Shown piece after piece: positions 19,015-38,857 of a stretch of DNA of 64,000 nt. Below the pieces are notes generated by a model that worked only from the letters and a program-made list of their open reading frames with translations, was not told where the DNA came from and did not search any database. How positions within the stretch are numbered: the stretch's first letter is position 1; the number at the start of each line of letters is the position of its first letter. The position numbers and the translations under genes are program-made. The stretch covers positions 57,135-121,134 of the forward strand of contig CAZYCE010000003.1 in assembly GCA_964645605.1 (NCBI GenBank), read 5' to 3'. Source of the DNA: an uncultured Gammaproteobacteria bacterium. GTDB taxonomy: Bacteria; Patescibacteriota; Microgenomatia; UBA8517.

Positions 19015-19528
19015 CAGGCCGATAAAAGAGGAAAGTAGAAAAGAGGCAGAGAGAAAATATGTAGAATTACTTATAAATCAGGGGGTCGATTTTGCGACAG
19101 GAGTACCCTGTGGAGTGCAGAAATATGTGATTGAATCACTTTCCTCAAGGCAAGAGGTTGCTCATATTCCGGCAACTCGAGAGTCCGAAGCTATAGGAAT
19201 AGCAGCTGGTGCATACCTTGCAGGCAAGAAACCACTTGTTTATATGCAAAATTCAGGGTTGCTTGAGTGTGTAAATGATATCTCATCATTATTATTGAGC
19301 TATAAAATTCCTGTATTATTATCTGTTTCATGGCGTGGTGCTCCGGGTGAAGATGCACCTCAACATTTTCTTAACGGTACCGCAACACCATTAATTTTGA
19401 AGGATTTGGGAATTTCCCACTTTATTATTAAGAATGATGAACAGGACTCGATTGTTAAAAAAGCCTATGAAGAAATGAAATCTACTCAAAAACCTGTGGC
19501 AATTTTGATTAGAAGGGAGGAATTCTAA
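18980..19528 (+). CDS. sulfopyruvate/phosphonopyruvate decarboxylase alpha-subunit-like protein (TPP enzyme N-terminal domain, ComD/Ppd family)
   Basis: GIAAGAYLAGKKPLVYMQNSGL is near-identical to the ComD/Ppd signature. The likely start is the ATG at 18998, which overlaps the upstream stop. Confidence 0.65.
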   Translation: MEGMAKMTSEFDRPIKEESRKEAERKYVELLINQGVDFATGVPCGVQKYVIESLSSRQEVAHIPATRESEAIGIAAGAYLAGKKPLVYMQNSGLLECVNDISSLLLSYKIPVLLSVSWRGAPGEDAPQHFLNGTATPLILKDLGISHFIIKNDEQDSIVKKAYEEMKSTQKPVAILIRREEF

Positions 19529-19529
19529 T

Positions 19530-20579
19530 ATGGACCGAAAAGAAGCAATTGATACAATTTTCCAAAATCTAGACAAAAATGACGCAGTTATTTCTTCTAC
19601 GGGACTTATAAGTCGGGAGATATTTAAAAGTTATGATAGCGAGAGAAATTTTTACATGGTCGGTTCGATGGGATTGGCTTCTTCAATAGCGCTGGGCGTC
19701 GCATTAAATAGACAAGATAGAGAGGTTTTTGTTATCGAAGGAGATGCGTCGGTATTAATGAACCTTGGTAGTTTAGCTACAATCGGGCATTTTCAGCCAA
19801 AAAATTTAGCACACATTGTTCTGGATAATAAAGCCTATGCATCCTGCAGCGAAGAGCCGTCAGTTTCAACAACGACTGATTTAAGTGAAATCGCTAAAGT
19901 TACAGGCTACAAGAGGATTGCAAGAGTAGATAACTCTACAGATTTGGTTAAAATGTTGTCTGGTGCCGATAAAAGTACTGGGCCTACATTCATATTGGTT
20001 GAGATTGAATTGGGGGGTGAAAGGAATTTACCTAGACCGATGGATTTACCAAAAAATGCAGACAATTTTCGAACATTTTTGTCACAAGTGCCGGAAAGTA
20101 ATTTTGGACACTCAAATATTGAGGTAGAGGGGACTGAACTCATTGAAAAATTTAAAAATACCTTAAAAGACATTTCGGTTTCAAATATAGAAGATTTTTC
20201 CGGTATTGGTATCATTTTATACAATTCGAACGTTCTGCTGGAAAATACTCACACAGACACTCGTTTAAGCACACCTCCACTGAACCATTTCAGGTTAGGA
20301 GAACAAGATTGCTTAAACTTTCTCGCGGATATCTCGCAGCATCGTAATCCATTTCATGACGGTTTCGTTTTCTTTAATGAAAAAGGGGTGTTAACGCATA
20401 TAGCTCAATACTTTGTCCCGTCAGTTGTTCCGGGAATTATCCCCAATGAAAGTGCGGGAATCAGGTTTCATTCGGCAAAATACGGTTCGTTTGTTAACGG
20501 AGTGATAGCAACAGGTGTCGTCAGTCGCAAACAGTCAGCCTATTTTTTCATAAAAGGTGAACAAAATCTTATTAAGTAG
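19530..20579 (+). CDS. decarboxylase beta-subunit-like (TPP-binding, ComE/Ppd family) fused to a C-terminal DAC (diadenylate cyclase)-like domain
   Basis: The N-terminal half carries ISSTGLISRE...NFYMVGSMGLASSIALGVAL...GDASVLMNLGSLATIG...LDNKAY (TPP-binding GDG-like fold). The C-terminal residues ~215-349 carry FHDGFVFF...KGVLTHIAQYFVPS...AGIRFHSAKYGSFVNGVIATGVVSRK. This parallels CdaA LHDGAMIV...RIAAAACYLPLS...LGTRHRAAVGISEVTDSLTIIVSEE. Confidence 0.6.
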   Translation: MDRKEAIDTIFQNLDKNDAVISSTGLISREIFKSYDSERNFYMVGSMGLASSIALGVALNRQDREVFVIEGDASVLMNLGSLATIGHFQPKNLAHIVLDNKAYASCSEEPSVSTTTDLSEIAKVTGYKRIARVDNSTDLVKMLSGADKSTGPTFILVEIELGGERNLPRPMDLPKNADNFRTFLSQVPESNFGHSNIEVEGTELIEKFKNTLKDISVSNIEDFSGIGIILYNSNVLLENTHTDTRLSTPPLNHFRLGEQDCLNFLADISQHRNPFHDGFVFFNEKGVLTHIAQYFVPSVVPGIIPNESAGIRFHSAKYGSFVNGVIATGVVSRKQSAYFFIKGEQNLIK

Positions 20580-20581
20580 AC

Positions 20582-21235
20582 ATGGCTAATATTGAACGGG
20601 AGATGCAAAGGGAATGGGATAATATATATACAGGGCGGGATCCCGCCGTTTATAAAAACCATAAAACATATCAAGACGGCCTGGTGGAAGTTATAAAATT
20701 GTGGAAGACTCGGGGTGTGGAAACGGTTCTGGATTTGGGTTGTGGAATCGGTAGAAATTCATTACAGATAAAGAAAAACGGCCTTAACGTTTTTGGCATT
20801 GATATTTCACTGTATGCCCTCACCTTACTTAACTCAGATCTTCACACGCAGAACTCAGTTGAAGGAAGTTTTAGCAATCTCCCATTTGCCAATGGATCTT
20901 TTGATGCAGTTTTGGCCACGAGGGTACTTCAACACGGTTCCTTAGAAAATGTTCAAACAGGCATTAAGGAAATAGCACGGGTATTAAAACCAAATGGAAC
21001 TGCTTTTGTCACCGTTTGCGGCAGATTCTCGCATGGAGAAGTGCGACCTAATTTAATTAAAACTGCTACAAAAATTAAAGACCATCTTTATGTCCCAAAT
21101 TATGGACAAGAAAAAGGTGTCACTCACTATATTTTCAATAAAAAAAATATTAAAGAAACGTTCCGTAATTTCTCAATACCAAAAATCTGGAAAGATAGTG
21201 ACGATTATTATTGTTTTTTAGCTTATAAAAAATGA
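20582..21235 (+). CDS. class I SAM-dependent methyltransferase (1 of 3 tandem)
   Basis: VLDLGCGIGRNS motif I and the acidic-loop FDAVLATRVLQH post-I motif. Confidence 0.75.
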   Translation: MANIEREMQREWDNIYTGRDPAVYKNHKTYQDGLVEVIKLWKTRGVETVLDLGCGIGRNSLQIKKNGLNVFGIDISLYALTLLNSDLHTQNSVEGSFSNLPFANGSFDAVLATRVLQHGSLENVQTGIKEIARVLKPNGTAFVTVCGRFSHGEVRPNLIKTATKIKDHLYVPNYGQEKGVTHYIFNKKNIKETFRNFSIPKIWKDSDDYYCFLAYKK

Positions 21236-21981
21236 CTATTAATATCGAAGGAGAAACAAGCGAGCGTTACACGGAAATAGCCGGTAGCTACGCTTCTGAT
21301 TCGAGGAGTGTGTTAAATCAAGATCAAAGAAAAGAGCTGGACATATTCGGATCGCTGCTTCCCCGTCATCCGTCAAAAATAATAGATATCGGTTGTGGAA
21401 CGGGTAAGGCCGGAAAGTATTTGGCTTCGCTTGGAAACGAACTTTACGGATTAGATTTGTCAAGTGGAATGCTCAACGAAGCAAAAAGTGCCTTTAATCT
21501 TGGCGGTTTGGAGTTCAAACCAATCCGAGCAAATATGAGAAGTTTACCCTTCCGGGATGATTCCTTCGACGGTATTAGTTCCGTTGCTTCTTTAATTCAT
21601 GTATCACCGGAAAATCGGGATTTTGTATTTCAGGAGTTTTCAAGAATATTAAAGCCGGAAGGTGTAATTTATTTGTCTGTTCAAAATATGCTCTCGCCCA
21701 AGCATGTTAAACGGGTAATACAATCTTCCTTTTGCAATCTCGGTTTTGATGAAAAAGGACAATATTATTTAAAGCCAAAAAAGATAGACGAGTTACTGCT
21801 CACCAATATTTTCACAAGGCTCAGGCAGGGATATGCTTATCTTGATCAAAGGCATTGGTATTATCCGACAAAAAAAGAACTTTATCAAAAACTCAAAATT
21901 AATAATCTGGCACCTGTCTGGAGTTGTGGCTCTTTATCTGATAGATTAAGTATTATTGCTATAAAAGAAAAAGATAAATAG
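21232..21981 (+). CDS. class I SAM-dependent methyltransferase (2 of 3)
   Basis: IIDIGCGTGKAGKYL motif I. Overlaps the upstream gene by 4 nt (ATGA). Confidence 0.75.
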   Translation: MTINIEGETSERYTEIAGSYASDSRSVLNQDQRKELDIFGSLLPRHPSKIIDIGCGTGKAGKYLASLGNELYGLDLSSGMLNEAKSAFNLGGLEFKPIRANMRSLPFRDDSFDGISSVASLIHVSPENRDFVFQEFSRILKPEGVIYLSVQNMLSPKHVKRVIQSSFCNLGFDEKGQYYLKPKKIDELLLTNIFTRLRQGYAYLDQRHWYYPTKKELYQKLKINNLAPVWSCGSLSDRLSIIAIKEKDK

Positions 21982-21985
21982 AGTT

Positions 21986-22648
21986 ATGGATACCCAGTGG
22001 AATAAAATCTACAAACAGAAAAAATTATCTTATGTAAGCAGCCTCTCAACATGGAGTGATATGGTATTTTTTTTACAAAAAAGATCCGCTCGTACCGTTT
22101 TAGATGTGGGTTGCGGCAGCGGCCAACATCTGCTGGATCTGGCAAAAAAAGGCTTTAATGTTTCGGGAATTGATAATTCAGGTGAAGCAATAGCTCTTGC
22201 ACAAAACCTTTTCAAAAAAAATAAACTAAAAGCAAATTTGCTGGTCGCAGACATGCACAAGAAGATTCCGTTTAAAGATAATAGTTTTGATGCGGTCTAC
22301 AGTTTACGGACACTCAACCATGGGGATAGTAAGGATATCGAAAATACTTTTTCTGAGATAAAAAGAGTTTTAAAAAAGAATGGCATATTCTTTTTTACCG
22401 TTCAGAAAATTTTAGGCTTCAGAGACAATCTTGGAAAACATAGGCTGAACAATTTAATCATCAATTTTGTAAAACCACGTACATATATCAAACTCGAAAG
22501 TGACGAAAAAGGCGTCAAACACTTTTTGTTTAATAAAAATATTTTAATAAGACTTTTAAAGGGATACAAAATATTGAAATTTTGGGTTGATTACGGAAAA
22601 CAAGATTGGGAAAAGTATTATTGCGTTCTTGCGGAAAAGATCAATTAA
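21986..22648 (+). CDS. class I SAM-dependent methyltransferase (3 of 3, paralogue of the first)
   Basis: VLDVGCGSGQHLLDL motif I. The C-terminal KGVKHFLFNKN...YYCVLAEK parallels MT1's KGVTHYIFNKK...YYCFLAYK. Confidence 0.75.
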   Translation: MDTQWNKIYKQKKLSYVSSLSTWSDMVFFLQKRSARTVLDVGCGSGQHLLDLAKKGFNVSGIDNSGEAIALAQNLFKKNKLKANLLVADMHKKIPFKDNSFDAVYSLRTLNHGDSKDIENTFSEIKRVLKKNGIFFFTVQKILGFRDNLGKHRLNNLIINFVKPRTYIKLESDEKGVKHFLFNKNILIRLLKGYKILKFWVDYGKQDWEKYYCVLAEKIN

Positions 22649-24069: not shown

Positions 24070-24612
24070 TCAATTACCTGGTTTTAGTACAAGGTGATGG
24101 GTTTCATATTCAAATAACACAGGGTCTTGCAGATTAAATAACTCTTTGATAATGAGTATCGCAAAATTCGCAGCTTTGGTATAATTCTCGTGGAAATTTA
24201 TACTTACATCTATTTTGCCTTTCCCAAAGTTTCTTCTTCCTATTGCCGACTCTTCAATATTTGATTTTTTTATTAATTTAGAAAGTTCCTTACTTTTTCT
24301 TTCATATTCGTTCTCCTTCCAAGCCGGAACGATAAGATAAATATCCACTCCGCTTCTCATGAACTGAACCCCAACGTTTCTGTAGTCATCAAAAATGAAA
24401 ATAACAAATGAGCGGTTTGGCAAATGTTTTAGGGCAAATTTGATAAAAGGGAAAGTCGAATCGCTTTTAAACGACATTTTATGGCTCCAGTAGTAAAAAA
24501 GTCTCCATGAATAAATCTTCTGCCAAGTTCTAAATACTGAACCCCAGAAATCAAATTCAATAACAACTTCTACTCCTAAAATTTTCTTCTTAAAAATAAA
24601 GGGTGAAAACAT
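24070..24612 (-). CDS. hypothetical protein
   Basis: ORF only. No motif was recognised. Confidence 0.3.
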   Translation of the reverse strand: MFSPFIFKKKILGVEVVIEFDFWGSVFRTWQKIYSWRLFYYWSHKMSFKSDSTFPFIKFALKHLPNRSFVIFIFDDYRNVGVQFMRSGVDIYLIVPAWKENEYERKSKELSKLIKKSNIEESAIGRRNFGKGKIDVSINFHENYTKAANFAILIIKELFNLQDPVLFEYETHHLVLKPGN

Positions 24613-24624
24613 TGAAAAATTATA

Positions 24625-25908
24625 TTATTCATAGAACCAATCCCATCCGGGGTTGTCTACTTCAACAATTTTACTTTTTAACATTTTATAAACCCCGTCT
24701 TCCAAAACAGTTTTCCATGTTCCTTCGTAATAATGATCCTCAACCTCACCGTCTACCCAGTTTTTGGTGGAGAATTTTACAAATGCGGTATCTTTTGTAT
24801 TTTCGAACCTCTCCGATTTAATAATATCGACGTCAAGAATATCGGTAAACCTGCCGGTCCACTCTTCAAAATTGGTTTTCTGTAAGTATTCCGTACTAAG
24901 AAGATTGAATCCGTCTTCCATTCTTCTTGCCTTAAGATATGTATAGAAAGCATAAACAGCATCCTCGGGGGATTTTGAAGGATCAACCTGAATTTTTGCT
25001 ATATCGTTATCGGTGAAGTTGGGAATCAAAGTTGAAATATTCTGAGCCCCTATAAATAGGGACAGACCTGCAACTCCCATTGTGTTTACCCCGACAAGGC
25101 TTCCGCATTGGTCAACAAGGGGTCCGCCGCTCATTCCGGGAACAAGACTCATATTTGTTTGGACATACCCGATCGGGTCTTTCCTGGAGGTTCTGTAATC
25201 TATGAAGTTTCCTTTAACTACGGTAGCGTTGCCTACCATATCGGTACCCAGCGCATACCCTGCAGAGATAAGCGGCTCATTGTCGTAAAATCCAAGCTCC
25301 TCGGGTAGGGAATATACGAAATCGGGATATTTGCCGTCGATAAATAGCAGTGCAAGGTCCGTATTTTTATCCCCGATAATTTTCGTAGGAGTCACAATCG
25401 TTCCTTCAGCCAAAATAATTTTTGGACTTGGTTCACCGGCAATCACATGGAAATTTGTTAATACCTGATTTTCACTTATAAAGAATCCCGACCCTTCCAT
25501 ATAACTTCCTTCAATTCTGACAACGGATTTTTTAAGTTTATCCGTTGTCGCGGGACCGCAGAAAATTTTTGCGAATGATCCGTATTGTTTTCTTAAATAA
25601 TCGGCAATTACCACTAGCGAAAAGAAGAGATAGATGATGATAACTACGTACACAATAGATTTCAAAAAGTTTTTGAGGCTTTTGAAAGGATATTTAATGC
25701 AGTCGATGATAAGCCCGATAATGGCAAGGATTAGTTTTATCAAAAACTTGATTAGGTAGTAAAGGGTATAGGTTATAAACTTGATGGGGAAGAGGTAAAT
25801 GGGAAAAAGAAGTTTTTTAAAATAAGCCTTAAGCCTTGAAGTAATATTTTTAAATTTAGACTTAATTTTCCCGGCCAGTCTTTCAAAAATGTCCATGTTA
25901 TTTTTCAA
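24625..25908 (-). CDS. membrane-anchored trypsin-like (S1) serine protease with unassigned C-terminal domain
   Basis: TM helices in the first ~100 aa. Catalytic triad context TNFHVIAG, DLALL and GMSGGPLV. Confidence 0.7.
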   Translation of the reverse strand: MKNNMDIFERLAGKIKSKFKNITSRLKAYFKKLLFPIYLFPIKFITYTLYYLIKFLIKLILAIIGLIIDCIKYPFKSLKNFLKSIVYVVIIIYLFFSLVVIADYLRKQYGSFAKIFCGPATTDKLKKSVVRIEGSYMEGSGFFISENQVLTNFHVIAGEPSPKIILAEGTIVTPTKIIGDKNTDLALLFIDGKYPDFVYSLPEELGFYDNEPLISAGYALGTDMVGNATVVKGNFIDYRTSRKDPIGYVQTNMSLVPGMSGGPLVDQCGSLVGVNTMGVAGLSLFIGAQNISTLIPNFTDNDIAKIQVDPSKSPEDAVYAFYTYLKARRMEDGFNLLSTEYLQKTNFEEWTGRFTDILDVDIIKSERFENTKDTAFVKFSTKNWVDGEVEDHYYEGTWKTVLEDGVYKMLKSKIVEVDNPGWDWFYE

Positions 25909-26653
25909 ATTTTCTTATCGCTTTTCTGTAATTGCAAAAATCGCAATCTTCCCCGGACTCCGGTAGTTTATCCGACTTAAGGCACTCAATAGCTTCTTGA
26001 ACTGTTCCATCCACCCAAGAATCATCCCCTTTATAGGGAATAATTTTAATATCAAACTCAAGTTTTCCGTCAAAAGCCTTTTTGTCTGTTTTTCCGTTGC
26101 AGTAAACAAAGTAGCCTGTTTTTGAAACATCATAACCGTTTTTTCTAAACAGCCATTGGTATATCTCCATTTGCCTTTTATATCCTTTCTGCCAATCGGC
26201 ATCCAAGTTTACTTCATCCTCTTTGGAAGTGGCTTTGTAGTCCACGATAATAAACTCACCCTTGGGATTAACCCAAACATCATCAACCCCTCCGGCTATT
26301 ACGACATTTGTTCCCGGAACATTATATGTAACCCCTCTCTTCATGGAATCCCTCCATTCGTCAATTTTTTCATGAGCGAGGGGAATTGCATCAATTCCGT
26401 ATGTTTCCATTAATGGGTGTTTTGTCCCGTTGGCTCTATGAATGTCAAATTCCTTCTTGAGAAGCTTATCTACGGCGGAGTTAAGCGAAAAAGGATATCC
26501 GGGCGGTTGGGCAACACCAAGTTTCCTATCGAGGTAAAAACAGCGGGGACATTTGATAAAATCATCAACCTTCCCTCGGCTCAATCTAAATGGTGCTTTT
26601 GAATCAGAATCATAAAGCCTCGTTAAACGGTTTGGGTTGTAATATTCACTCAT
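25898..26653 (-). CDS. Cas4-like / RecB-family PD-(D/E)XK nuclease with 4-Cys Fe-S cluster
   Basis: N-terminal CPRCFY and C-terminal CDFC cysteines. GGVDDVWV (motif II), IVDYKAT (D/ExK) and QMEIYQWL (QxxxY). No CRISPR array lies nearby. Confidence 0.6.
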   Translation of the reverse strand: MSEYYNPNRLTRLYDSDSKAPFRLSRGKVDDFIKCPRCFYLDRKLGVAQPPGYPFSLNSAVDKLLKKEFDIHRANGTKHPLMETYGIDAIPLAHEKIDEWRDSMKRGVTYNVPGTNVVIAGGVDDVWVNPKGEFIIVDYKATSKEDEVNLDADWQKGYKRQMEIYQWLFRKNGYDVSKTGYFVYCNGKTDKKAFDGKLEFDIKIIPYKGDDSWVDGTVQEAIECLKSDKLPESGEDCDFCNYRKAIRKFEK

Positions 26654-26680
26654 ATTTATCTTCGGTTACAGTAAGAAGTG

Positions 26681-26872
26681 TCATTTAATTCTTCCTGGAT
26701 CTCCTTTATTTATGTCATGAACAACCCTCTTAACGTAATCATTAATCCATACGTCAATATAGCTTATTGAACTCCCCTTTTTACTTTTGGGTTTGTTCTG
26801 AATATTCTTTATTTTATTTTCAATATTTTTCATCATATTTGTTTTTTTGTTGGGATTATAATACTGTGACAT
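26681..26872 (-). CDS. small hypothetical protein; its N-terminus (MSQYYNPNKK) parallels the downstream nuclease (MSEYYNPNRL)
   Basis: ORF plus the shared N-terminal motif. It may be a duplicated gene-start remnant. Confidence 0.25.
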   Translation of the reverse strand: MSQYYNPNKKTNMMKNIENKIKNIQNKPKSKKGSSISYIDVWINDYVKRVVHDINKGDPGRIK

Positions 26873-27624
26873 CAGGATTCGGTAAACTTGTCTATGACAA
26901 TCTCGGATAAAATATTAAAATATAATAATTCTTTCTGGGTTAATTCATCATTGTGTTGAATTTTATTTCTGTACAAGGCAAGTTCCCGAAGGTGATACTT
27001 ATATTGCAGCGCTTCATCACGGTCTATAAATAGATCGGAAAACATTTCCATGTTTTCCCTGAATATTTTGAAAAAATCCATAATTCCTGCAGCGGATAGC
27101 ACGTCGGATGGATTAGAATAATCAGGCCTCATATGAATATTTCTTTCGTAAATACCAACCAAATCCAAACGGATAGGTTCTGGTATGTGAAGTAACCAAT
27201 GTGTTGAATATCTAACCATGAAATGACTACAAAATGAATTTCTTAATACAGTTTCGAGTGTTGCAATATTCTTTCTGGCAGTTTCGAGAAGAATCAGGTC
27301 TTTTAAATTTAAATTTTTGGGTTTTGTTTTGGAGACGATTATGGCATCCTCACCAGGGTTTCTTATAGACCACCTTATTCCCCCAGACATGAGGACTCTC
27401 TTTTTAAGTAATCCCTTATTTCCCATCTGAATAATAGAGCTTTTTACCCTTCTCTTCATGTTTCCGTACGTTCTTTCTACTCCAAAAACCTTTTTCGCAA
27501 CCGCCGTCACAAGACTTGATTCGTCTCTTTCCCGACCTTCGGAAATTTCCAATAAAATTGCATCCTTAAACGACATCTTCATTCTTTTCATTCTTCTTTT
27601 CCGTGCTTTTCTTTTTTTAATCAT
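26872..27624 (-). CDS. basic N-terminal DNA-binding-like domain protein with C-terminal HEPN-type Rx4H motif
   Basis: N-terminal KRKARKRRMKRMK basic tract. C-terminal ALYRNKIQHN (R-x4-H) in a predicted helical segment. Confidence 0.35.
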   Translation of the reverse strand: MIKKRKARKRRMKRMKMSFKDAILLEISEGRERDESSLVTAVAKKVFGVERTYGNMKRRVKSSIIQMGNKGLLKKRVLMSGGIRWSIRNPGEDAIIVSKTKPKNLNLKDLILLETARKNIATLETVLRNSFCSHFMVRYSTHWLLHIPEPIRLDLVGIYERNIHMRPDYSNPSDVLSAAGIMDFFKIFRENMEMFSDLFIDRDEALQYKYHLRELALYRNKIQHNDELTQKELLYFNILSEIVIDKFTES

Positions 27625-27632
27625 CTATTATT

Positions 27633-28028
27633 TTAGCCAATTTCCTCTTTAATTTTGTTTATACAAAATTGTAAGTTGTCATATATATCGGTTTCCCAAA
27701 AACGAAAGACTTTCCACCCATCTTTTTTTAATTCGTTATTCACTTTTTTATCCCTTTCCATGTTAATTCTGATTTTTTCTTTCCAGAATTTATTGTAATT
27801 GGGTGCTTCCTTGCTATAGTTTCTTCCATGCCAAAAATCACCGTCGCAGAAAATAACAATTTTACTGTCTATTATGACCATATCCGGTTTTCCCGGAAGC
27901 GGAAAATTTTTTTCAAATCCAATTCCCGAAGTATTCAAAGCGGCACCCAGCATTAATTCAATATCCGTATCCTTATTTCTCACCTTTGCCATTAACTCCT
28001 TTCTTTTTTTAATGGAAATTCTATCCAT
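27633..28028 (-). CDS. vsr: very-short-patch repair endonuclease
   Basis: LPGKPDMVIIDSKIVIFCDGDFWHG...WKEKIRINMERD...GWKVFRFWE, the full Vsr signature. Confidence 0.85.
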   Translation of the reverse strand: MDRISIKKRKELMAKVRNKDTDIELMLGAALNTSGIGFEKNFPLPGKPDMVIIDSKIVIFCDGDFWHGRNYSKEAPNYNKFWKEKIRINMERDKKVNNELKKDGWKVFRFWETDIYDNLQFCINKIKEEIG

Positions 28029-28029
28029 A

Positions 28030-29064
28030 TTACTGATTATTATTTATGGTCTTAATTATATTGGCCGCAATTGCTTCAATAACGGGAATTGCCACACTAT
28101 TACCGATCTGTTTCATCCTTTGGTTGGGCGACAGCTGATCAGGAAATTTGAAGTTACTCGGAAAGCCCATCATTGATTTTGCCTCGTCAACGGTGAGTTG
28201 ATGAGGTTTTCTTTTTTTGGAATTCTTTTCGAAGAATAAATAAGAATCCCATGTTCTTTTATCGTTTACCCAAATTTTATTGTCATCGACTCTGATATAA
28301 GAATCGTCTGGCGTTTTGTGTTTATCTAGCCAATTGTTACTTTTATATGCCGAGCCTACACCACCCAACCTAATTGTTCTTCCGACACGATTGGGCCAAC
28401 CCAATCGTGTTATGTCTGACGAGTCCCACTCTTCGTTCAAGTTTTTAAAGAATTCTGATAAGGTAACAGGTTCTTCATGCGTCGGCTTCGGCCACCACGA
28501 ATCATCAGGAGCCGCGCGTAAAACATCTTCCCTAAAACCGACCATGTACACTCTATCTCTTTTTGTGGGGAGTCCAAATTGTGAAGCCTTATAGGTGTGG
28601 ATAGAAATTGGATAACCCGCACTTTTCATTTCGCTTTTAATAAAATCGATTAGTTTGCCGTTGTTTCCATTGGGAATATTAAGTAAGTTTCTGACATTTT
28701 CCAAAAATACGGCTTTTGGTTTTTTTTCGCGAACAATCTGAACAATATATTGGAAAAGTGTTCCTCTGTGATCATCAACTCCTCTTTTTTTACCGACAAC
28801 ACTAAAAGGTTGGCATGGAAATCCCGCACAAACAATATCTATACCTGTGGGGATGCCTCTTCTTACAACGGGATCTTTTATATCACCAAGGAGCTTCGTT
28901 CCTTTAAAGTTTTTTGAATATGTCAAACTCGCTTTATCGTCGATATCTACTGCAAGTACGCATTCTGAGGGTATTCTAAGTTTTTCTGAGGACTGTTTTA
29001 TTCCCAAATGAAATCCACCAATTCCGGAAAAAAGATCAACGAATTGTAATTTGTTCTTTCTCAT
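28030..29064 (-). CDS. dcm: DNA (cytosine-5)-methyltransferase
   Basis: Motif I FVDLFSGIGGFHLG, motif IV GFPCQPFS, ENV motif VI (FLENVRNL) and C-terminal GNSV. Confidence 0.9.
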   Translation of the reverse strand: MRKNKLQFVDLFSGIGGFHLGIKQSSEKLRIPSECVLAVDIDDKASLTYSKNFKGTKLLGDIKDPVVRRGIPTGIDIVCAGFPCQPFSVVGKKRGVDDHRGTLFQYIVQIVREKKPKAVFLENVRNLLNIPNGNNGKLIDFIKSEMKSAGYPISIHTYKASQFGLPTKRDRVYMVGFREDVLRAAPDDSWWPKPTHEEPVTLSEFFKNLNEEWDSSDITRLGWPNRVGRTIRLGGVGSAYKSNNWLDKHKTPDDSYIRVDDNKIWVNDKRTWDSYLFFEKNSKKRKPHQLTVDEAKSMMGFPSNFKFPDQLSPNQRMKQIGNSVAIPVIEAIAANIIKTINNNQ

Positions 29065-29076
29065 GCAAACACCGTT

Positions 29077-29826
29077 TCAACTTAGCTTAGAGAGAAAATC
29101 ACGGCAACCATCAAGTAACTGTCGCATTTGGATGTCACTCATCGAAGAGAGTATTTTATATGATCCGTAATAGTTAAGTTTTTTCATTAATTCACGATAC
29201 TTAAGTTCCCTGCCTGGTTCAAATAATTTAGGGTTGTCCTTCTCAAAATCCAAAATTGAGCTAATCATTTTTTTGTTTTTTCCCTGATATCCTGAATAAA
29301 TTGTCCTTGTTTGATCCAAGTCACGAAAGGCTAATCGCGATAATTCATAAGGGTCACGTCTTTTATTGTCAAAGGTTAAATAAATAATCCACCAAAGTTT
29401 TGAGATCTCATTTCTCATCAAGTCGTTTGCAGAACTATTTTCTACAAACCAATGAGTTAAGACGTGGTTAACCAACTGTTCATTAGTTTTGTGGCTCGAA
29501 GGAACAGGGCTTCTTTTTTGCATATAGTTCCAAAATACCGTGTGTGAAAGACATGACCAAATCCTTGGATCTGTTGCATAATCTGGCTTTAATCCGTGAA
29601 TTTTTTCAAAAAGAATTTTGCCGTTCTCAAACTCGAATTGAGTTTTGTCTTTACCCTCTGGCTCAAGGAGTTTGATATCGTCATCAATGGTAACTGTGGG
29701 GTGTTCCCAAACGCATTCCTCTTTTATCGGAAATGAACTAGCCGAATAAAGGGGCAATGATTTGGAATTTTTCACTGCATCTTTGAGCTCCACCAAGTAG
29801 GCGTTTGTAAAAAGTTTAAGTTTCAT
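29077..29826 (-). CDS. hypothetical protein (candidate cognate nuclease/effector)
   Basis: ORF translationally coupled to dcm. No motif was recognised. Confidence 0.3.
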   Translation of the reverse strand: MKLKLFTNAYLVELKDAVKNSKSLPLYSASSFPIKEECVWEHPTVTIDDDIKLLEPEGKDKTQFEFENGKILFEKIHGLKPDYATDPRIWSCLSHTVFWNYMQKRSPVPSSHKTNEQLVNHVLTHWFVENSSANDLMRNEISKLWWIIYLTFDNKRRDPYELSRLAFRDLDQTRTIYSGYQGKNKKMISSILDFEKDNPKLFEPGRELKYRELMKKLNYYGSYKILSSMSDIQMRQLLDGCRDFLSKLS

Positions 29827-30739
29827 TATATTGTTCGTTTATGCTTTCCTTAGTTGTGAGGGGAATAAGGCCCTCAATACTTATTAATTGCCTTGAAAAA
29901 GGAAGCCTCATTATTAATTGTGAAATTCTTGGTATATCTACAACTTGAAAATCTAAAGAGTCTGTTTCTTCGTTGTAGTAAATAGATAATTTCTCATCTC
30001 TTTTAATCTTGTGTTTAAGCATTTTATACCACGTATATTTTGGTTGTTCTGAGGATTGGTTTATGTATGCCAATATATAATTCAAAACTGGAAATACTAA
30101 CGAACTATGATAAATTGCCGGAATAAATTGATTTCTTCCAAAATAATCGAATTTTTTATGATCTTCGTGGGTCATATAAATTATTATTTTCTGGTTATCA
30201 AAACCGATTTCGAGTGGTTCCGCCTTTCCACCATTTGGATTGTCTACTACAACAAAAAAATTTTTAACTAATTTTGTTGATTGGAAAATTTTCTCCGCCC
30301 AAAAAATTTTTTCATTTGTAAAAGCTAAAATATCACCCGCATCTAAATCAAAACCGTTATCCAAATACTCATCATTAAAATTAGGGCTTTTATATTGGGC
30401 AATAGATGCTGTCGCTACGATAAAAAACTGAATTGCTACCTCCTCCGAAACATCATCCGCAGAGATCATAATTTCTTGAGTTTCACTCTTACTGTTGTAT
30501 GTGCTTCTGTAAATTGTACTTTCACACTGTATATCGACACAAAAACAAGCCTTATCATCTTGTATTAATTTTTCAATTGTCCTCTCAGCAAGATGGTGTT
30601 TGATCTTAAAATTATAAAAATGACCCCCATCTTTTTCTGTTATACTCGTTGCAACCATCCCAACATCATATTCTCCAGCAATGTCGCCCTCCCTTCCTAA
30701 AACTGGATATGGATATGATTTATTAGTCAATATTTTCAT
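29816..30739 (-). CDS. hypothetical protein
   Basis: ORF overlapping both neighbours. No motif was recognised. Confidence 0.3.
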   Translation of the reverse strand: MKILTNKSYPYPVLGREGDIAGEYDVGMVATSITEKDGGHFYNFKIKHHLAERTIEKLIQDDKACFCVDIQCESTIYRSTYNSKSETQEIMISADDVSEEVAIQFFIVATASIAQYKSPNFNDEYLDNGFDLDAGDILAFTNEKIFWAEKIFQSTKLVKNFFVVVDNPNGGKAEPLEIGFDNQKIIIYMTHEDHKKFDYFGRNQFIPAIYHSSLVFPVLNYILAYINQSSEQPKYTWYKMLKHKIKRDEKLSIYYNEETDSLDFQVVDIPRISQLIMRLPFSRQLISIEGLIPLTTKESINEQYNET

Positions 30740-32735
30740 ATTTTGCCTTTAGTCCTAAAGAGTATTTTTCATTGCTTTCAAAATATACAATCAGTTTAAC
30801 TTTTCCTTCATTGTCCGTAACAATATTATGAATTATATTGCCGTTAGTTATTAATGACTTCCCGGATATTTCTTCTGCGCCTGAAATTATTGGTGAGTTA
30901 TAGTCTATGCCGCTTTCGGTACCCCAGCCCAATATTAAATCCAATTTTTTATATTCCTGAAGGTCTAAGTTAATGTTGTATTTCCATTCACCATTTTTAC
31001 TCTTCGTTGCGAATGATCTAAAATCAGCATTCTTTAAGACAACCTCTTCACCTGAATGATTTTCATTACCCCCGTAGCCGTGACCGTGACCGTGGCCGCC
31101 TTCACGAATTAATACACCATTTTTCCCTTTTACACCCATCGTTGACACTGGAATAGTAACTACTGTTCGCCTTTCGAGCTTTTCAATTTCATGAATGTCG
31201 CCGGTGGCTCTGAGTGCGGTTTCTTCATCTGTTGGTTCACCGAATCCTGAATTCTCCATTGATGTGTCAAAACCTGCAAACTCATCGGGATTTTCTATCC
31301 CCAGCATGTCTTCCATTTCGGGTATTTCGCTTTCTTTAACAGATATAGTTTTACCTATCTCTCCCATAAAATCACTAACAAAGTCACGGAGTTCAACTTC
31401 TGCCGCCTCCGCCATCCGTTTTACCTGATCACTTTCTCCTGGTTTAACATAACTTGCCTTCCATTCATTGTGGGGGGCGTTTTCCATTTTGCGTAAAATT
31501 ATATTTCCCTCTCTACTCTCACATACGAATACAGCTGCAAATTTTTGAGGAAAAGCAAATACTTTATTCATAACCACCATTCCGTTATTCCTAACAAATT
31601 GAATTTTATTCTGGAAATCATTATTAAAGGAATAATACATTTTTAAATCGCCAAGAATTGTTGTCTTTTTCATGTACGGTTTTTCTTTATGTTCTGTATA
31701 TGCCCAGAGGTACGGAAAAGGATTCGGTCTAGTTTTGGTATCTGGTTTGTAAGTATCAAAAATCCCAGTTAAGCTTTTACCTAAATTATCCTTATTAACA
31801 ATAATGTCTTCAATTTGAACTTCCAAAAGTCCATCTTGAATTGCTTTCCAAAAATTGTACAGAATTTTTGTTGTCATCAGTTTTTTCCAGAAACCGCTAT
31901 CATCGAAATCGACAACATAAATATCTGTTCCTTGTTTTTCATCTAACCTCCGGAACATATATGGAATCTGATTCTTGGTACGAACCGGTTCCTGATTTTT
32001 TAAACCAAATGATCCACTACCTTGTTTCTTTTTGTTGTTAAAAATATGTGTATTTAAATCTAATAGGCCCCCAAAAACATATTTGTCTGTGTCAAAAATG
32101 CTGGAGTAAAAAAGAGTTCTAAATCCAGATAAATTATAAAAAGAAGCTTTTCCAAGACCCCACGAGCCACCACTTGTTTCACCTTTATTTGTTGATCCCT
32201 CTGTTTTAGCGAAACAGTAGAAATTGCTCTCGAGATATTTGGGGTCATTGGGGTCGCCACTCAAGCCCTGCGTATTATAATCACTAATTTTCAAAATTTT
32301 AATAAATTCATTTTTGGTAATCTTGTCTATGGCATCACCGTAAAATTTCTTTACATTCGGGTCGCGATAATATTCTTGACAAGCCTGGAATATGGATTTT
32401 AGTTGATCTGGGTTGGGAATTTCTTTCGCTTTTATTTTTAATAACTCGAATTTGGCAATTGCAGGGCCTTCCACGTTTTCGTCTTTAGCATCGAGTATGT
32501 TTTGAATAGCTTCTCTGGCCAAAGATTGTCTGGGGTCTTCTAAGAAATTAGATCCAAGAGGCGCATTAAATCCGTCATCTCTTCCATGTCCCAGATCTTC
32601 GAATTCGTAATTTAAATCAGCCATTTTATAATTGGAATTTAACTTTCTTTGTATAAGTAAATTTGGATTTTGCGTTATTTTTTGCCCCATCGATTGCGGT
32701 AAATATCTTTTGAATTTCGGAATCAGTATAATCAT
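30723..32735 (-). CDS. GHKL (Bergerat-fold, HATPase_c) ATPase, MORC/paraMORC-like
   Basis: N-box SLAREAIQNILDA and G2 box GGSWGLGKASF. The likely true start is MADLNYE at about 32624, 1 nt after the stop of the upstream 79-aa ORF. A GHGHGHGYGG low-complexity tract lies in the C-terminal third. Confidence 0.55.
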   Translation of the reverse strand: MIILIPKFKRYLPQSMGQKITQNPNLLIQRKLNSNYKMADLNYEFEDLGHGRDDGFNAPLGSNFLEDPRQSLAREAIQNILDAKDENVEGPAIAKFELLKIKAKEIPNPDQLKSIFQACQEYYRDPNVKKFYGDAIDKITKNEFIKILKISDYNTQGLSGDPNDPKYLESNFYCFAKTEGSTNKGETSGGSWGLGKASFYNLSGFRTLFYSSIFDTDKYVFGGLLDLNTHIFNNKKKQGSGSFGLKNQEPVRTKNQIPYMFRRLDEKQGTDIYVVDFDDSGFWKKLMTTKILYNFWKAIQDGLLEVQIEDIIVNKDNLGKSLTGIFDTYKPDTKTRPNPFPYLWAYTEHKEKPYMKKTTILGDLKMYYSFNNDFQNKIQFVRNNGMVVMNKVFAFPQKFAAVFVCESREGNIILRKMENAPHNEWKASYVKPGESDQVKRMAEAAEVELRDFVSDFMGEIGKTISVKESEIPEMEDMLGIENPDEFAGFDTSMENSGFGEPTDEETALRATGDIHEIEKLERRTVVTIPVSTMGVKGKNGVLIREGGHGHGHGYGGNENHSGEEVVLKNADFRSFATKSKNGEWKYNINLDLQEYKKLDLILGWGTESGIDYNSPIISGAEEISGKSLITNGNIIHNIVTDNEGKVKLIVYFESNEKYSLGLKAKYENID

Positions 32736-32865
32736 ACGAGCTTCTGTTGGATAAATTTCCCAACAACCGCAGGTCGTTTAAAATACGATTTACCCTTCGG
32801 GTTGCCAATCTTTCAAATCTTTGGTGTCTTGTTTCCGACATGTCTATTATATGGGATACTATCAC
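32626..32865 (-). CDS. small basic protein, possible DNA-binding partner of the ATPase
   Basis: 79-aa ORF whose stop abuts the inferred ATPase start. RFERLATRRVNRILNDL helix. Confidence 0.3.
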   Translation of the reverse strand: MIVSHIIDMSETRHQRFERLATRRVNRILNDLRLLGNLSNRSSYDYTDSEIQKIFTAIDGAKNNAKSKFTYTKKVKFQL

Positions 32866-32930
32866 TAAATATAGTATTTGTCAATAGTTATATACATATT
32901 TAATCTACAGAGTATATTTAACAACTTAAA

Positions 32931-33791
32931 TCAACCTAATCCAAACTTTTCTTTTAATGAAGATTCTTGTATTAAATATTTAAAGAATTCCTCAACTTGT
33001 TCAATTCTTACAATTTTAATGAATGGTCTTAGCTCGTGAAAAGTGCCGGAAAGAAGTTCGCTTACTTTCTCGAAATTGACACTATCTACAACTATGAATG
33101 GCTCACTATTCCATAGATCAAATGCATGTTTTAGTTTTGACAATGCCTGATGTGGACTTCCACCAATCTGAACTTCAAAAACTTTAGTCGGAACCCCTCG
33201 TGGGACTCTACGCCATGCAACATCCAATCTTTCACTATCAATCCCGTATTCTTTTTCACTTATAAAATGTTCCATTTGACCGATTTCCGTAAGTTTGTCC
33301 CTAATTTGATTATGTAAAGAAAGCTCGGGAGTCACCGTTTTTATTGGAATCTCCAGTTTGACGGCGTTGATAGTCAAATTGAGTTTGTCCGAAAGCCTGG
33401 CCATTAACTCTTTAACAACTTCTTCCTTACTAACGGGGTTAACTCCCGCCTGTAGACTTAACGATAAGTCATTTACGGCAACGGCGCTTTCTTGCCATTT
33501 TTCGGGAGAAAGAACACCCAAAATTTGAAAATCAAAACGGTACGGATAAATAACACTCTTCGCTCTAATCTCATCGGGCCAGAGCGGTTTATCTTGCTTA
33601 AACTTAGACTCAAGCTTACCGAGACCAATTAACCCTTTTATTGGAGATTTTGCGTAAAAAAGAAGATAATCACCCCTTTCGAGCTTTTTCCATCTGGAGA
33701 CAAGACCACCTTCCCGAACTCCCCAAATATTGCCGTTATTAAATGCCGTTTCCCAATTTTCTTCGTTGCCAGTCAGTATCCAAACTCTCAT
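32931..33791 (-). CDS. EVE/PUA-like domain protein with possible C-terminal nuclease domain (candidate modification-dependent restriction enzyme)
   Basis: N-terminal MRVWILTGNEENWETAFNNGNIWGVREGG...GDYLLFYAKSP matches the EVE fold. The C-terminal D..(VFEVQ)..K spacing is weakly PD-(D/E)XK-like. Confidence 0.45.
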   Translation of the reverse strand: MRVWILTGNEENWETAFNNGNIWGVREGGLVSRWKKLERGDYLLFYAKSPIKGLIGLGKLESKFKQDKPLWPDEIRAKSVIYPYRFDFQILGVLSPEKWQESAVAVNDLSLSLQAGVNPVSKEEVVKELMARLSDKLNLTINAVKLEIPIKTVTPELSLHNQIRDKLTEIGQMEHFISEKEYGIDSERLDVAWRRVPRGVPTKVFEVQIGGSPHQALSKLKHAFDLWNSEPFIVVDSVNFEKVSELLSGTFHELRPFIKIVRIEQVEEFFKYLIQESSLKEKFGLG

Positions 33792-33866: not shown

Positions 33867-34289
33867 TTAGTTGGCAGCCCCGCTAGGCTGCAAGCGCACA
33901 AAACCGCATTTTTCCCCGTCGCTCAATCCGACGATGGTCAGGCGGGAAAAAAATTCCTCCCAAGTCTTTCCTACCGTTTTAAGAAGCACAAAGGTTCCGT
34001 TTACAACCTTAAGCCCTTCCCAATGGTCCAGGCATTTAGTTATGACCACAATATTTTCCGGATTATAGATATTCCTGTAAACCATGTTTTTTTCATCAGA
34101 TTTTCCGTTATAAGTATCAAGATCTGGTTCATAAAGCGCCGTAGCGGACATATTGACCCCTTGCTCTCTATAAAAATTAGCAAAAAGTATGTTGAGAGGA
34201 AACTCGGACAGCTCCGGCTTGCCCTCGATCTCAAGTTTTTTTGGGACAAACCCGAATCCCTGCGTTTGGTTATTATTTACTTCCATCAT
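33867..34289 (-). CDS. hypothetical protein
   Basis: ORF only. Confidence 0.3.
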   Translation of the reverse strand: MMEVNNNQTQGFGFVPKKLEIEGKPELSEFPLNILFANFYREQGVNMSATALYEPDLDTYNGKSDEKNMVYRNIYNPENIVVITKCLDHWEGLKVVNGTFVLLKTVGKTWEEFFSRLTIVGLSDGEKCGFVRLQPSGAAN

Positions 34290-34518
34290 TTTTAATCACC
34301 TCCCTTCTTTACCAACAAAAAACCTCTCCGAAAGAGAGGTTTGAAAAAAACATTGCCAGTAAAAAATCGGCCAAATCTTTCCCTTTCGGGCTGGATTTAG
34401 CACCGTAATAAAAAACTTTTTACCCGGTTGCTGAGTGGATCAACGGGCCAGTGCCCTAACCACTACTCTAGATTTTTTGCCTTATGAGGTAATTATAATA
34501 CCAATTCTTCAAATTCTT

Positions 34519-38575: not shown

Positions 38576-38857
38576 CTAACTCCAAGTTGTCAGAAAGTAG
38601 CGGATATATTCCGATTGTCTGACACCGTCTAAATGGCTTTGGATTACCTCAGTTGTGAGCAGTAATGGTTTTTTGTTAGTATAATCACTGAATTTACCTC
38701 CTTTTGCCTTAAATTTGTTGTATTCAGTCCAGTCCACTTCGTATACTGGACTGTAACCGCTTTTTCCGTCTTTTTCCCAACGTCGGGCGTAAACATCATT
38801 TCTACCTCTGAAAAGAGATATAAATAGTTGGATTTGATCAAAAGTAGTTTTACCCAT
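38576..38857 (-). CDS. hypothetical ORF / possible gene fragment
   Basis: Two overlapping minus-strand ORFs in different frames in a 627-nt gap. This may be a frameshifted remnant. Confidence 0.2.
   Translation of the reverse strand: MGKTTFDQIQLFISLFRGRNDVYARRWEKDGKSGYSPVYEVDWTEYNKFKAKGGKFSDYTNKKPLLLTTEVIQSHLDGVRQSEYIRYFLTTWS

Follow-up and report, generated by a model that had tools for sequence, protein, structure and literature searches.

The window (the whole stretch of DNA that was analysed, 64,000 nucleotides) very probably holds a mobile cassette, made up of a promoter, a 71-aa protein, a GHKL ATPase (A), a 307-aa protein (B), a DUF6339 protein (C), a C5-cytosine methyltransferase and a Vsr endonuclease, in which A-B-C corresponds to the defence candidate PDC-M33 and which was inserted upstream of two resident genes coding for a Cas4-like nuclease and a protease; an EVE protein and a HEPN-like protein are, on the same reading, swappable island neighbours and not components. 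The features are as follows:

24,070-24,612, minus strand: extra co-directional ORF, downstream of the protease gene
24,625-25,908, minus strand: membrane-anchored trypsin-like serine protease with a transmembrane segment (Trypsin_2, 7.6e-19), resident gene
25,898-26,653, minus strand: PD-(D/E)XK nuclease with Cas4-like cysteines (PDDEXK_1, 2.9e-12), resident gene
26,681-26,872, minus strand: 63-aa open reading frame, doubtful
26,872-27,624, minus strand: 250-aa protein with a HEPN-like RNKIQH motif near the C-terminus, variable accessory
27,633-28,028, minus strand: Vsr very-short-patch repair endonuclease (Pfam Vsr, 5.8e-18)
28,030-29,064, minus strand: C5-cytosine DNA methyltransferase, Dcm type (Pfam DNA_methylase, 3.2e-73)
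29,077-29,826, minus strand: C, 249-aa DUF6339 protein (Pfam, PADLOC), overlapping B by 11 nt
29,816-30,739, minus strand: B, 307-aa protein (PDC-M33B), overlapping A by 17 nt
30,723-32,624, minus strand: A, 633-aa GHKL ATPase of MORC/MutL type (GHKL motifs, PDC-M33A, predicted structure)
32,626-32,841, minus strand: small basic 71-aa protein, first cassette gene (homologues upstream of A)
32,856-32,884, minus strand: promoter-like site of the cassette (TTGACA, 17 nt, TG-TAGTAT)
32,931-33,791, minus strand: EVE (PUA-like) reader protein (Pfam EVE, 4.6e-6), variable neighbour
27,633-32,884, minus strand: the mobile cassette as a unit, in the order promoter, 71-aa protein, A, B, C, C5-methyltransferase, Vsr

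The ORF check showed that the open reading frames at 24,625-33,791 are all real and, as first claimed, all on the minus strand. The spacings of -17 to +14 nt given originally hold for most of them (-17, -11, +12, +1, +8, -1, +27, -11 (or +1) and +12 nt), the exception being the 27 nt that separate the 63-aa ORF from the Cas4-like gene. For the small gene, the start is ATG 32,841 and not GTG 32,865, which shortens its product from the 79 aa first reported to 71 aa and widens the gap to the EVE gene, correctly placed upstream, from 65 to 89 nt. The promoter-like site lies inside this gap and matches the consensus at 10 of 12 positions, with an extended -10 TG (consensus scan). Near-100% DNA identity between the window and the closest related locus (L009; A identity 99%) starts around this site, and the gene upstream of it is unrelated. 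The original prediction treated ten genes as one candidate defence system, naming independent occurrence of the genes beforehand as the observation that would speak against it; only the small protein, A, B, C, Dcm and Vsr were found to travel together, therefore a ten-gene functional unit is not supported, while the candidate system pairing a GHKL ATPase with Dcm and Vsr stands.

The conserved core and its match to PDC-M33

Two of the core proteins, previously described as having no recognisable motifs, match PDC-M33B (B) and DUF6339/PDC-M33C (C), and PADLOC assigns A, B and C to this candidate over near-full length and in the same order (A, 2e-91, residues 41-664 against profile positions 3-623 of 627; B, 3.1e-53, residues 4-291 against 3-282 of 289; C, 4e-42, residues 1-236 against 1-233 of 247). 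PDC-M33 is a computational 'guilt-by-embedding' candidate of three genes (Payne et al., 2024, bioRxiv 10.1101/2024.01.29.577857), such candidates having been found by their location in or beside defence loci. The earlier remark that this gene order was not recognised as a named system is overtaken by this assignment in part only, as the core A-B-C is already catalogued as a phage-defence candidate and is not a validated or named system; within the library searched, PDC-M33 and DUF6339 are mentioned in no paper. The entry, as matched, comprises only A, B and C, whereas the 71-aa gene, Dcm and Vsr match no PDC-M33 model, so that the 71-aa first gene and the strong Dcm/Vsr linkage go beyond it.

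In the window the three genes are adjacent and co-directional with overlaps of 17 and 11 nt, and A-B-C occurs in one order with overlapping genes in 87 non-redundant related loci, drawn from GTDB genomes of several phyla and from metagenome contigs. Among 89 fetched loci B was found in 87 and C in 86, and the order was the same in nearly all. Relatives of the cassette are present in 27 plasmid records and two phage records, and in the temperate phage inspected the cassette adjoins an integrase. Neighbours include TIR, KAP NTPase and SMODS/AGS_C (CBASS-type) proteins, type I and type IIG restriction-modification, serine recombinases and terminase, and some cassettes are embedded in, or adjoin, type I restriction-modification loci or other defence genes.

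A was read from the internal ATG at 32,624 (633 aa), since the 670-aa version would reach 110 nt into the gene upstream. Its original description as a Bergerat-fold ATPase was confirmed: E38, N42, D45, D115, G120, G153, G156 and G158 are invariant in 45 homologues, giving the N-box ExxxNxxD, a DxGxG-like G1 and the GxxGxG of G2, and the invariance of the catalytic E38 and of every ATP-binding motif suggests that the ATPase is intact. In the predicted structure, a GHKL plus S5-like module (residues 1-428) is joined by a disordered linker (442-526) to a C-terminal β-sandwich (530-630). The Bergerat fold is followed by an S5/transducer-like domain, and the module resembles the MORC/SMCHD1/MutL type, with MORC3 as the best structural match. 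This MORC likeness is structural only, with no HATPase_c or HATPase_c_3 match at E <= 0.1 (Pfam), and a PDB profile search revealed no resemblance to MutL in sequence. The S5-like domain has, in its later part, an ExxxH motif (E381 and H385 invariant in the homologue alignment), which is the hallmark of paraMORC2 (PMC2292703).

In its predicted structure, B begins with a β-rich, Ig-like region and ends in a helical domain. C matches Pfam DUF6339 (1.5e-43), and its homologue in one locus (L012) is fused to two Topo-I-type zinc ribbons (Zn_ribbon_Top1) of the DNA-binding type. Divergence of C correlates with that of Dcm when A and B are controlled for (partial Mantel r = 0.22, p = 0.001), which is not seen for B (r = 0.006), in a test that is prone to false positives on related sequences. 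From the fusion and this correlation, we propose C as a putative DNA-contacting, reader or specificity subunit.

The 71-aa protein, predicted by eye to be helical, ends 1 nt ahead of the A start, and in 58 of 89 loci a homologue of it immediately precedes A. The family has a mean column identity of 46% with F9, R16, N32 and Y36 invariant, and gave no Pfam, PADLOC or PHROG match. It is a probable fourth component that is not listed in PDC-M33.

Linkage to the methyltransferase and Vsr

The Dcm and Vsr pair of the original prediction is borne out by the Pfam matches listed above, and the methyltransferase translation shows the PCQ, ENV and QxGNSV motifs. A-B-C has a C5-methylase no more than 3 kb away in 43 of the 51 loci with full flanks (84%), compared to one of 80 control loci (~1%), and Vsr in 26 of 51 compared to none of 80; the controls are the best 80 of 588 stretches matching the Cas4-like gene, all without A, B and C. 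The small protein is likewise present in 26 of the 51. Vsr was found only in loci that also carry the C5-methylase and is missing from 17 of those 43 (~40%), hence it is not an obligate effector.

The linkage to the methylase is strong and variable in form. Between closely related pairs of loci the degree of conservation of the methylase is usually similar to that of A, B and C, and most loci hold no other restriction enzyme that it could serve. Mirror-tree correlations (Spearman 0.78 for A-B, 0.67 for A-C and 0.41 for A-Dcm) also speak for the link. The position and orientation of the methylase vary widely, however, and methylase swaps occur, as in one pair with Dcm only 22% identical where A and B are 81% and 88% identical (L064 and L066). 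In 8 of the 51 full-flank loci A-B-C is intact with no C5-methylase within 3 kb, an N6-methylase being near only one of them (L071), and some of these are closely related to methylase-bearing cassettes (L048 and L066, A identity 75%). Restriction-modification logic does not readily explain how a restriction module could persist once its methylase is gone, unless the genome encodes an unlinked one. In five loci, Dcm and Vsr are accompanied by a further small gene resembling a restriction enzyme, which in three of the five lies between them; here the pair may serve that enzyme and not A-B-C.

Proposed mechanism and related systems

The cassette is likely to be a methylation-linked, restriction-like candidate defence, as judged from gene content and linkage. 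Of the parts of a type II restriction-modification system with Vsr (M, R and V), the window contains M and V, and no recognisable restriction endonuclease was found in the folds of A and B or the profiles of A, B, C and the small protein. Predicted-structure comparison gave no nuclease fold for A or B, none of the four proteins has a nuclease profile match (Pfam, PADLOC), and sequence comparison of C showed no conserved acidic catalytic pattern.

We tentatively propose a stepwise mechanism resembling restriction-modification, to which we give somewhat less than an even chance; cassette identity and mechanism taken together come only just short of even. The methyltransferase would place a 5-methylcytosine mark on host DNA, and Vsr would mend the T:G mismatches arising from its deamination. 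A, by its fold and architecture, would dimerise and work as an ATP-driven clamp like MORC and MutL, tethered through the linker to the C-terminal domain, and together with B and the DNA-contacting C would act on incoming DNA that lacks the mark, with the small protein as a partner or regulator of the ATPase. Since neither A nor B has a recognisable nuclease fold, the effector step would be one of three: a new nuclease activity in C or B, the recruitment of the Vsr-type nickase, by analogy with the stimulation of Vsr by MutL in Escherichia coli (PMC2292703), or a non-cleaving block akin to BREX interference or MORC compaction. A more specific form of the last, which we regard as unlikely, is a nuclease-free, methylation-gated immunity, in which the DUF6339 subunit would read the state of Dcm sites and guide a MORC/SMCHD1-like clamp onto unmethylated incoming DNA, silencing or blocking it without cutting, with the 71-aa protein as a general partner of GHKL ATPases. 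If true, this would be a prokaryotic counterpart, and possibly an evolutionary forerunner, of eukaryotic MORC-type epigenetic silencing.

To our knowledge, BREX is a methylation-based defence whose nuclease step has not been identified. The cassette would resemble it in logic only, in that a methyltransferase accompanies effector genes that include an ATPase and no nuclease can be recognised; the BREX methylase is the N6-adenine enzyme PglX, whereas the cassette has a C5-cytosine enzyme with Vsr, and its proteins gave no BREX profile match (PADLOC). GHKL ATPases in restriction-modification operons (MORC/paraMORC) were discussed by Iyer, Abhiman and Aravind (2008; PMC2292703), and A is paraMORC2-like in its GHKL plus S5-type module, its ExxxH motif and its operon link to cytosine methylases and Vsr. 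An SF2 helicase and a restriction-endonuclease-fold partner are typical of paraMORC operons, whereas the cassette has neither as a recurrent neighbour, and the paper does not describe B or C. A GHKL ATPase does occur in a validated anti-phage system, the GHKL-Shedu protein VcSduA (paraMORC3; PMC12137116), but this is a single protein with a fused DUF4263 PD-(D/E)xK nuclease, whereas A has no nuclease domain and has separate partners.

Alternative readings and the neighbouring genes

A-B-C could be an autonomous, methylation-independent defence, with Dcm and Vsr as frequent but functionally separate passengers: the methylase could be an orphan or protect the element, with Vsr as its repair partner, or the two could be the modification half of a different restriction system. 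The eight loci with an intact core and no nearby C5-methylase, the variable placement of the methylase, its exchange with A and B barely changed, the five loci with a restriction-enzyme-like gene of their own and the cassettes in or beside type I restriction-modification or other defence genes are all consistent with this. We nevertheless consider it rather improbable, as the 84% adjacency, against ~1% in controls and across phyla, is far above ordinary defence-island clustering, close pairs have mostly inherited the methylase together with A-B-C, and most loci offer it no other restriction enzyme. A repair or maintenance role, with A as a MutL-like matchmaker and B and C as mismatch- or DNA-recognition partners aiding Vsr-type repair, which would offset the mutagenic cost of a mobile Dcm, is decidedly less probable. 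MutL stimulates Vsr in E. coli (PMC2292703), Vsr only ever occurs with Dcm in cassette loci, and A, encoded beside Dcm and Vsr, is MutL-like in that a long flexible linker joins its N-terminal GHKL plus transducer module to a distinct C-terminal domain. That domain, however, is a dimerisation/endonuclease domain in MutL and a small β-sandwich in A; moreover, Vsr is absent from 17 of 43 methylase-bearing loci, the methylase link is the stronger one, A-B-C persists where both Dcm and Vsr are missing, and the cassette, unlike MutL/Vsr, is mobile, being found in defence islands, on plasmids and, in the temperate phage inspected, next to the integrase.

That all ten or eleven co-directional genes, from EVE through the protease, form one multi-module defence system is highly improbable, and neighbourhood conservation has largely refuted it. 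Packing is tight and a terminator scan revealed no convincing terminator between these genes, making their co-transcription possible, which, if so, does not imply shared function. A PUA-like, restriction-enzyme-like gene lies upstream of a small-protein and GHKL pair in three arrangements of the lineage (the window, L009 and L115), and a HEPN-like homologue follows C in one distant locus. On the other hand, no other cassette locus fetched has a homologue of the EVE protein, the 63-aa ORF or the protease, the Cas4-like and HEPN-like proteins have one in a single locus each, and the EVE slot is replaced in L009. The Cas4-like gene is conserved without the cassette (588 metagenome stretches matched; A, B and C are absent from all of the best 80 of these, which are 65-85% identical). 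In four related contigs without the cassette the protease gene follows it directly, and in a fifth (L128) at a distance of ~0.7 kb. Both are therefore resident genes of the lineage. The junction of the 63-aa ORF with the Cas4-like gene is also where contigs are broken in one assembly of this sequence.

The Cas4-like label itself holds in part: the nuclease domain is clear, but the Cas4 models stay low (TIGR00372, 37.9 against a cut-off of 65; Pfam Cas_Cas4, E = 0.055), and no cas genes lie nearby. The only homologue at the fetched cassette loci is ~3.7 kb from a distant cassette (L011). The membrane serine protease was correctly recognised by its transmembrane segment and trypsin-like domain. 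The 63-aa ORF has no homologue in any fetched locus and begins much like the protein encoded next to it (MSQYYNPNK; MSEYYNPNR in the Cas4-like protein), a mimicry suggesting that it may be a scar at the island boundary. For the 250-aa protein, the Rx4H HEPN-type motif reported originally is present and is conserved in its one homologue (L014; directly after C, 35% identity, RNRIQH), but there was no HEPN profile match; PADLOC gave a weak match to PDC-M34B (3.5e-5). The EVE assignment was upheld (Pfam, 27.1 bits against a gathering cut-off of 23, residues 3-124), with no homologue in the 88 other cassette loci. The slot it occupies holds, in L009, an unrelated 369-aa PUA-like protein matching REase_II. 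The EVE protein may be a modification-dependent nuclease; its C-terminal 150 aa match no family, and a D...FEVQ pattern there aligns only weakly with this REase_II-like protein (E = 1.6).

Composition of the locus and its PDC-M33 core

Minus-strand ORFs run without interruption from 24.0 to 34.3 kb, with plus-strand histidine phosphatase and phosphodiesterase genes on the flanks. The genes and domain calls of the original prediction proved real, the minus-strand ORFs and Pfam matches being recovered, including the following features:

24625-25908, minus strand: membrane-anchored trypsin-like protease (domain match)
25898-26653, minus strand: PD-(D/E)XK nuclease of 251 aa with Cas4-like cysteines (PDDEXK_1, 3e-12)
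27633-28028, minus strand: very-short-patch repair endonuclease, Vsr (Pfam, 6e-18)
28030-29064, minus strand: C5-cytosine methyltransferase, Dcm (Pfam, 3e-73)
32931-33791, minus strand: EVE domain protein (Pfam, 27.1 bits; cut-off 23)

Two starts were corrected, to ATG 32624 for the GHKL ATPase (A, 633 aa) and to ATG 32841 for the small first gene (71 aa), and alignment to a near-identical relative agrees with both. With these corrections the gene spacings are near the -17 to +14 nt first reported, the only one outside this range being the 27 nt ahead of the Cas4-like gene. The 250-aa HEPN-like protein ends in RNKIQH, and the profile search found no HEPN match for it. A Cas4/CRISPR reading of the 251-aa nuclease was rejected, as its Cas4 model score fell below the cut-off and the gene is resident in the lineage.

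The core of the locus is already catalogued as PDC-M33, and the locus is a further member of that candidate group. PADLOC matches run end to end for A (PDC-M33A, 2e-91), for the 307-aa protein B (PDC-M33B, 3e-53) and for the 249-aa protein C (PDC-M33C, 4e-42; also Pfam DUF6339, 1.5e-43). This assignment is to a catalogued candidate and not to a validated or named system: PDC systems are 'guilt-by-embedding' candidates, put into PADLOC without individual testing (10.1101/2024.01.29.577857). Literature searches on PDC-M33, on DUF6339 and on defence by bacterial MORC proteins yielded nothing relevant, no cassette protein had a PHROGs match, and querying the PDB by profile, with alignments of A, B and C and with the EVE protein, gave no significant hit. 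A restriction-modification role has been predicted for bacterial GHKL (MORC-like) ATPases since 2008 (PMC2292703), and no characterised multi-protein restriction-modification system with such an ATPase was found in the literature searched. The present analysis adds statistics on Dcm/Vsr linkage, the small conserved gene that opens the cassette, the modelled folds of A (MORC/MutL-type) and B (non-enzymatic), and a DNA-binding fusion of C.

All GHKL motifs of A are invariant, including the catalytic glutamate, as are R345 and an ExxxH motif (E381/H385). The model of A (pLDDT 80.7) comprises a confident module (1-428), a disordered linker (442-526) and a β-sandwich (530-630). The ExxxH motif is the hallmark of paraMORC2 according to Iyer et al. 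(PMC2292703), but the helicase and nuclease partners of paraMORC2 operons are absent from the cassette. The model of B (pLDDT 91.4), whose family numbers 1,426 clusters at 50% identity, is β-rich in its N-terminal part and helical in its C-terminal domain, and its fold search gave generic β-sandwich matches only. Neither B nor C matched any characterised family. The top-conserved positions of C are aromatic (W90, W145, W146, H95, Y101), not acidic, and in an uncultured Saccharibacteria locus (L012:2855-4396) C is a 514-aa protein that ends in two C4 zinc ribbons of the DNA-binding topoisomerase-I type (Pfam, 1.6e-16). The small protein is the best conserved component, at 46% mean column identity.

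Conservation of the cassette and its link to cytosine methylases

A word-indexed search gave about 50 clusters of A homologues, and a profile-guided scan across GTDB, with a single genome for each species, recovered relatives of A in at least 502 stretches, from Patescibacteria, Bacteroidota, Paenibacillus, Gammaproteobacteria, Planctomycetia and further phyla. Eighty of these stretches and nine metagenome contigs were compared by jackhmmer, using the window's proteins against all ORFs of the 89 loci. All 89 encode A, 87 encode B and 86 encode C. The gene order is invariably A-B-C on a single strand, usually with overlaps, and the accompanying genes are a C5-methylase (74 loci), the small protein (58) and Vsr (50). 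Among the 51 loci whose flanks both reach 3 kb or more, a C5-methylase lay within 3 kb in 43, Vsr in 26 and the small protein in 26, the latter two only alongside a methylase; control loci fetched via an unrelated gene (n = 80, 563 kb) held one C5-methylase and no Vsr. The placement and orientation of the methylase differ among cassette loci. An N6-methylase that might stand in for Dcm was found at only two Dcm-less loci (L067 and L071), and so offers no general explanation for the loci that lack Dcm. Clustering of all neighbours across 87 loci gave no sign of a fifth obligatory component, for instance a nuclease: further families recurred in 10 loci at most, led by a large serine recombinase.

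Plasmids and phages carry relatives of A as well, in 27 plasmid records and two phage records. An inspected Deinococcus plasmid has the order Dcm, Vsr, one further gene and small-A-B-C, and in a temperate Clostridium innocuum phage the cassette adjoins the phage's integrase; these genes are all annotated as hypothetical.

Limits of the island and its resident neighbours

The original prediction united ten co-directional genes (24625-33791) in one candidate defence system. An uncharacterised, methylase-linked GHKL candidate stands, but neighbourhood conservation confines it to six genes, small-A-B-C-Dcm-Vsr (27,633-32,884, minus strand). The EVE protein, a 63-aa ORF and the protease have no homologue in the other 88 cassette loci, and the HEPN-like and Cas4-like proteins each have one in a single other locus (L014 and L011, respectively, the latter about 3.7 kb downstream of C). 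In a relative with 99% identity in A (L009), near-100% DNA identity to the window begins around the promoter-like site 5' of the small gene, and the EVE slot holds a gene without DNA-level relation to the window's EVE gene, coding for a 369-aa protein that is weakly PUA-like at the N-terminus and matches a PADLOC type II restriction-enzyme profile at the C-terminus. The EVE gene is absent from L008, a locus in which B is 93% identical; there the cassette lies within an element carrying a serine recombinase and a terminase, and is followed by a 168-aa match to a 'methyl-directed type II restriction enzyme' profile and then by DUF2130 and FtsK-like genes. A 140-aa ORF 5' of the window's EVE gene (33867-34289, minus strand) shares about 75% DNA identity with L009, and beyond it lies an intergenic stretch about 97% identical to L009, with a terminator-like hairpin (34320-34342).

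On the other side, 588 metagenome stretches gave a match to the Cas4-like protein; the best 80 of them, at 65-85% identity, contain neither A, B or C nor the 63-aa ORF or the HEPN-like protein. The protease lies downstream of the Cas4-like gene in five closer-related contigs, directly so in four. Their conservation in cassette-free contigs indicates that both are resident genes of the lineage, which places the end of the island just upstream of the Cas4-like gene. Contigs of identical sequence in one assembly break at the junction between this gene and the 63-aa ORF (26681-26872, minus strand). The start of this ORF (MSQYYNPNK) resembles that of the Cas4-like protein (MSEYYNPNR; 26627-26653, minus strand) and no homologues were found elsewhere; perhaps the resident gene's 5' end was duplicated at the island boundary and the copy has decayed into this ORF. 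A search for repeats or att sites flanking the island found short, chance-like repeats only, and the 64-kb window contains no integrase. For genome scanning, the lesson is that close co-directional packing does not make a system, as is seen from this island, which was inserted beside resident genes.

Other defence modules lie just 5' of Cas4-like homologues in two related contigs, so this position looks like a defence/integration hotspot of the lineage. One (L115:959-5198) encodes a 373-aa PUA-like/REase_II-like protein, 62% identical to the REase_II-like protein of L009, then a homologue of the small protein and a 505-aa HATPase_c_3 ATPase that is unrelated in sequence to A. The other (L111:1398-5980) has a type IIG restriction-modification enzyme, a small-protein homologue and a GIY-YIG-like ORF. 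The small protein thus seems to pair with more than one kind of GHKL ATPase, and could be a partner of these ATPases in general.

Further genes of the window were noted about 5 kb from the cassette and beyond its resident neighbours:

38973-40157, plus strand: AAA_14 and DUF4143 ATPase (PADLOC PDC-S01, 5.7e-66)
about 38576-38857, minus strand: 93-aa fragment with an AEP-TOTE primase domain (gene table of an identical contig), adjoining the PDC-S01 match
17905-22648, plus strand: radical-SAM-like protein, two thiamine-pyrophosphate enzyme halves and three class I SAM methyltransferases

The PDC-S01-type ATPase and the primase fragment, about 5 kb from the cassette, are defence-related genes or remnants, and the 17905-22648 run has the look of a small biosynthetic cluster with no connection to the cassette.

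Possible modes of action

Restriction-modification-like logic is the best-supported reading of the cassette, which in about 5.2 kb joins a MORC/MutL-type ATPase, B, C and a cytosine methylase, and in which no nuclease is visible. Dcm would mark self DNA and Vsr would limit the mutational cost of 5mC, while an ATP-driven MORC/MutL-type clamp (A), B and a putative DNA-contacting subunit (C) would act on unmarked DNA. As its effector step the cassette might use a hidden nuclease, recruit Vsr as a nickase (MutL does stimulate Vsr; PMC2292703) or impose a block without cleavage. The way such a cassette discriminates self from non-self and blocks foreign DNA could reveal new restriction chemistry or non-cleaving MORC-like immunity.

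The main evidence against the restriction-like reading is that 16% of full-flank loci have no nearby C5-methylase, some of these being closely related to methylase-bearing cassettes. An autonomous defence system with Dcm and Vsr as passengers is the alternative to be set beside these loci, and we consider it unlikely. Pairwise distances of A correlate (Spearman) with those of B (0.78) and C (0.67), and at lower values with Vsr (0.43), the methylase (0.41) and the small protein (0.39). Most closely related pairs show roughly equal conservation of the methylase and of A, B and C; clear methylase swaps also occur, for instance between L064 and L066 (Dcm 22% identical; A 81%, B 88%, C 61%). Partial Mantel tests against methylase divergence gave r = 0.22 for C (p = 0.001), 0.15 for A and 0.006 for B, a link of C and A to the methylase that is a hint only because such tests over-call on related sequences. 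A repair accessory serving Dcm and Vsr is an improbable role for genes that also occur at Dcm-less loci, and the ten-gene model, largely refuted by the neighbourhood data, is the most improbable of all.

Some cassette loci carry additional genes related to restriction or to GHKL ATPases. In five, a protein of ~170 aa with a PADLOC 'type II methyl-directed restriction enzyme' match (1e-58) and a weak DUF6998 match separates Dcm from Vsr or follows closely on Vsr, and could be either the cognate nuclease of the neighbouring methylase or a methyl-directed enzyme:

L008:13115-13621, ~170-aa restriction-enzyme-like protein
L001:10387-10929, the same
L014:8697-9221, the same
L023:2071-2622, the same
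L026:8725-9252, the same

A second protein, of 700 aa and with two GHKL-type domains (N-terminal HATPase_c_3, C-terminal HATPase_c), adjoins PDC-M33 cassettes of Bacteroidota (L041:6085-8187; also L047, L050, L053 and L080), and a 321-aa HNH_2 endonuclease recurs in six cassette loci.
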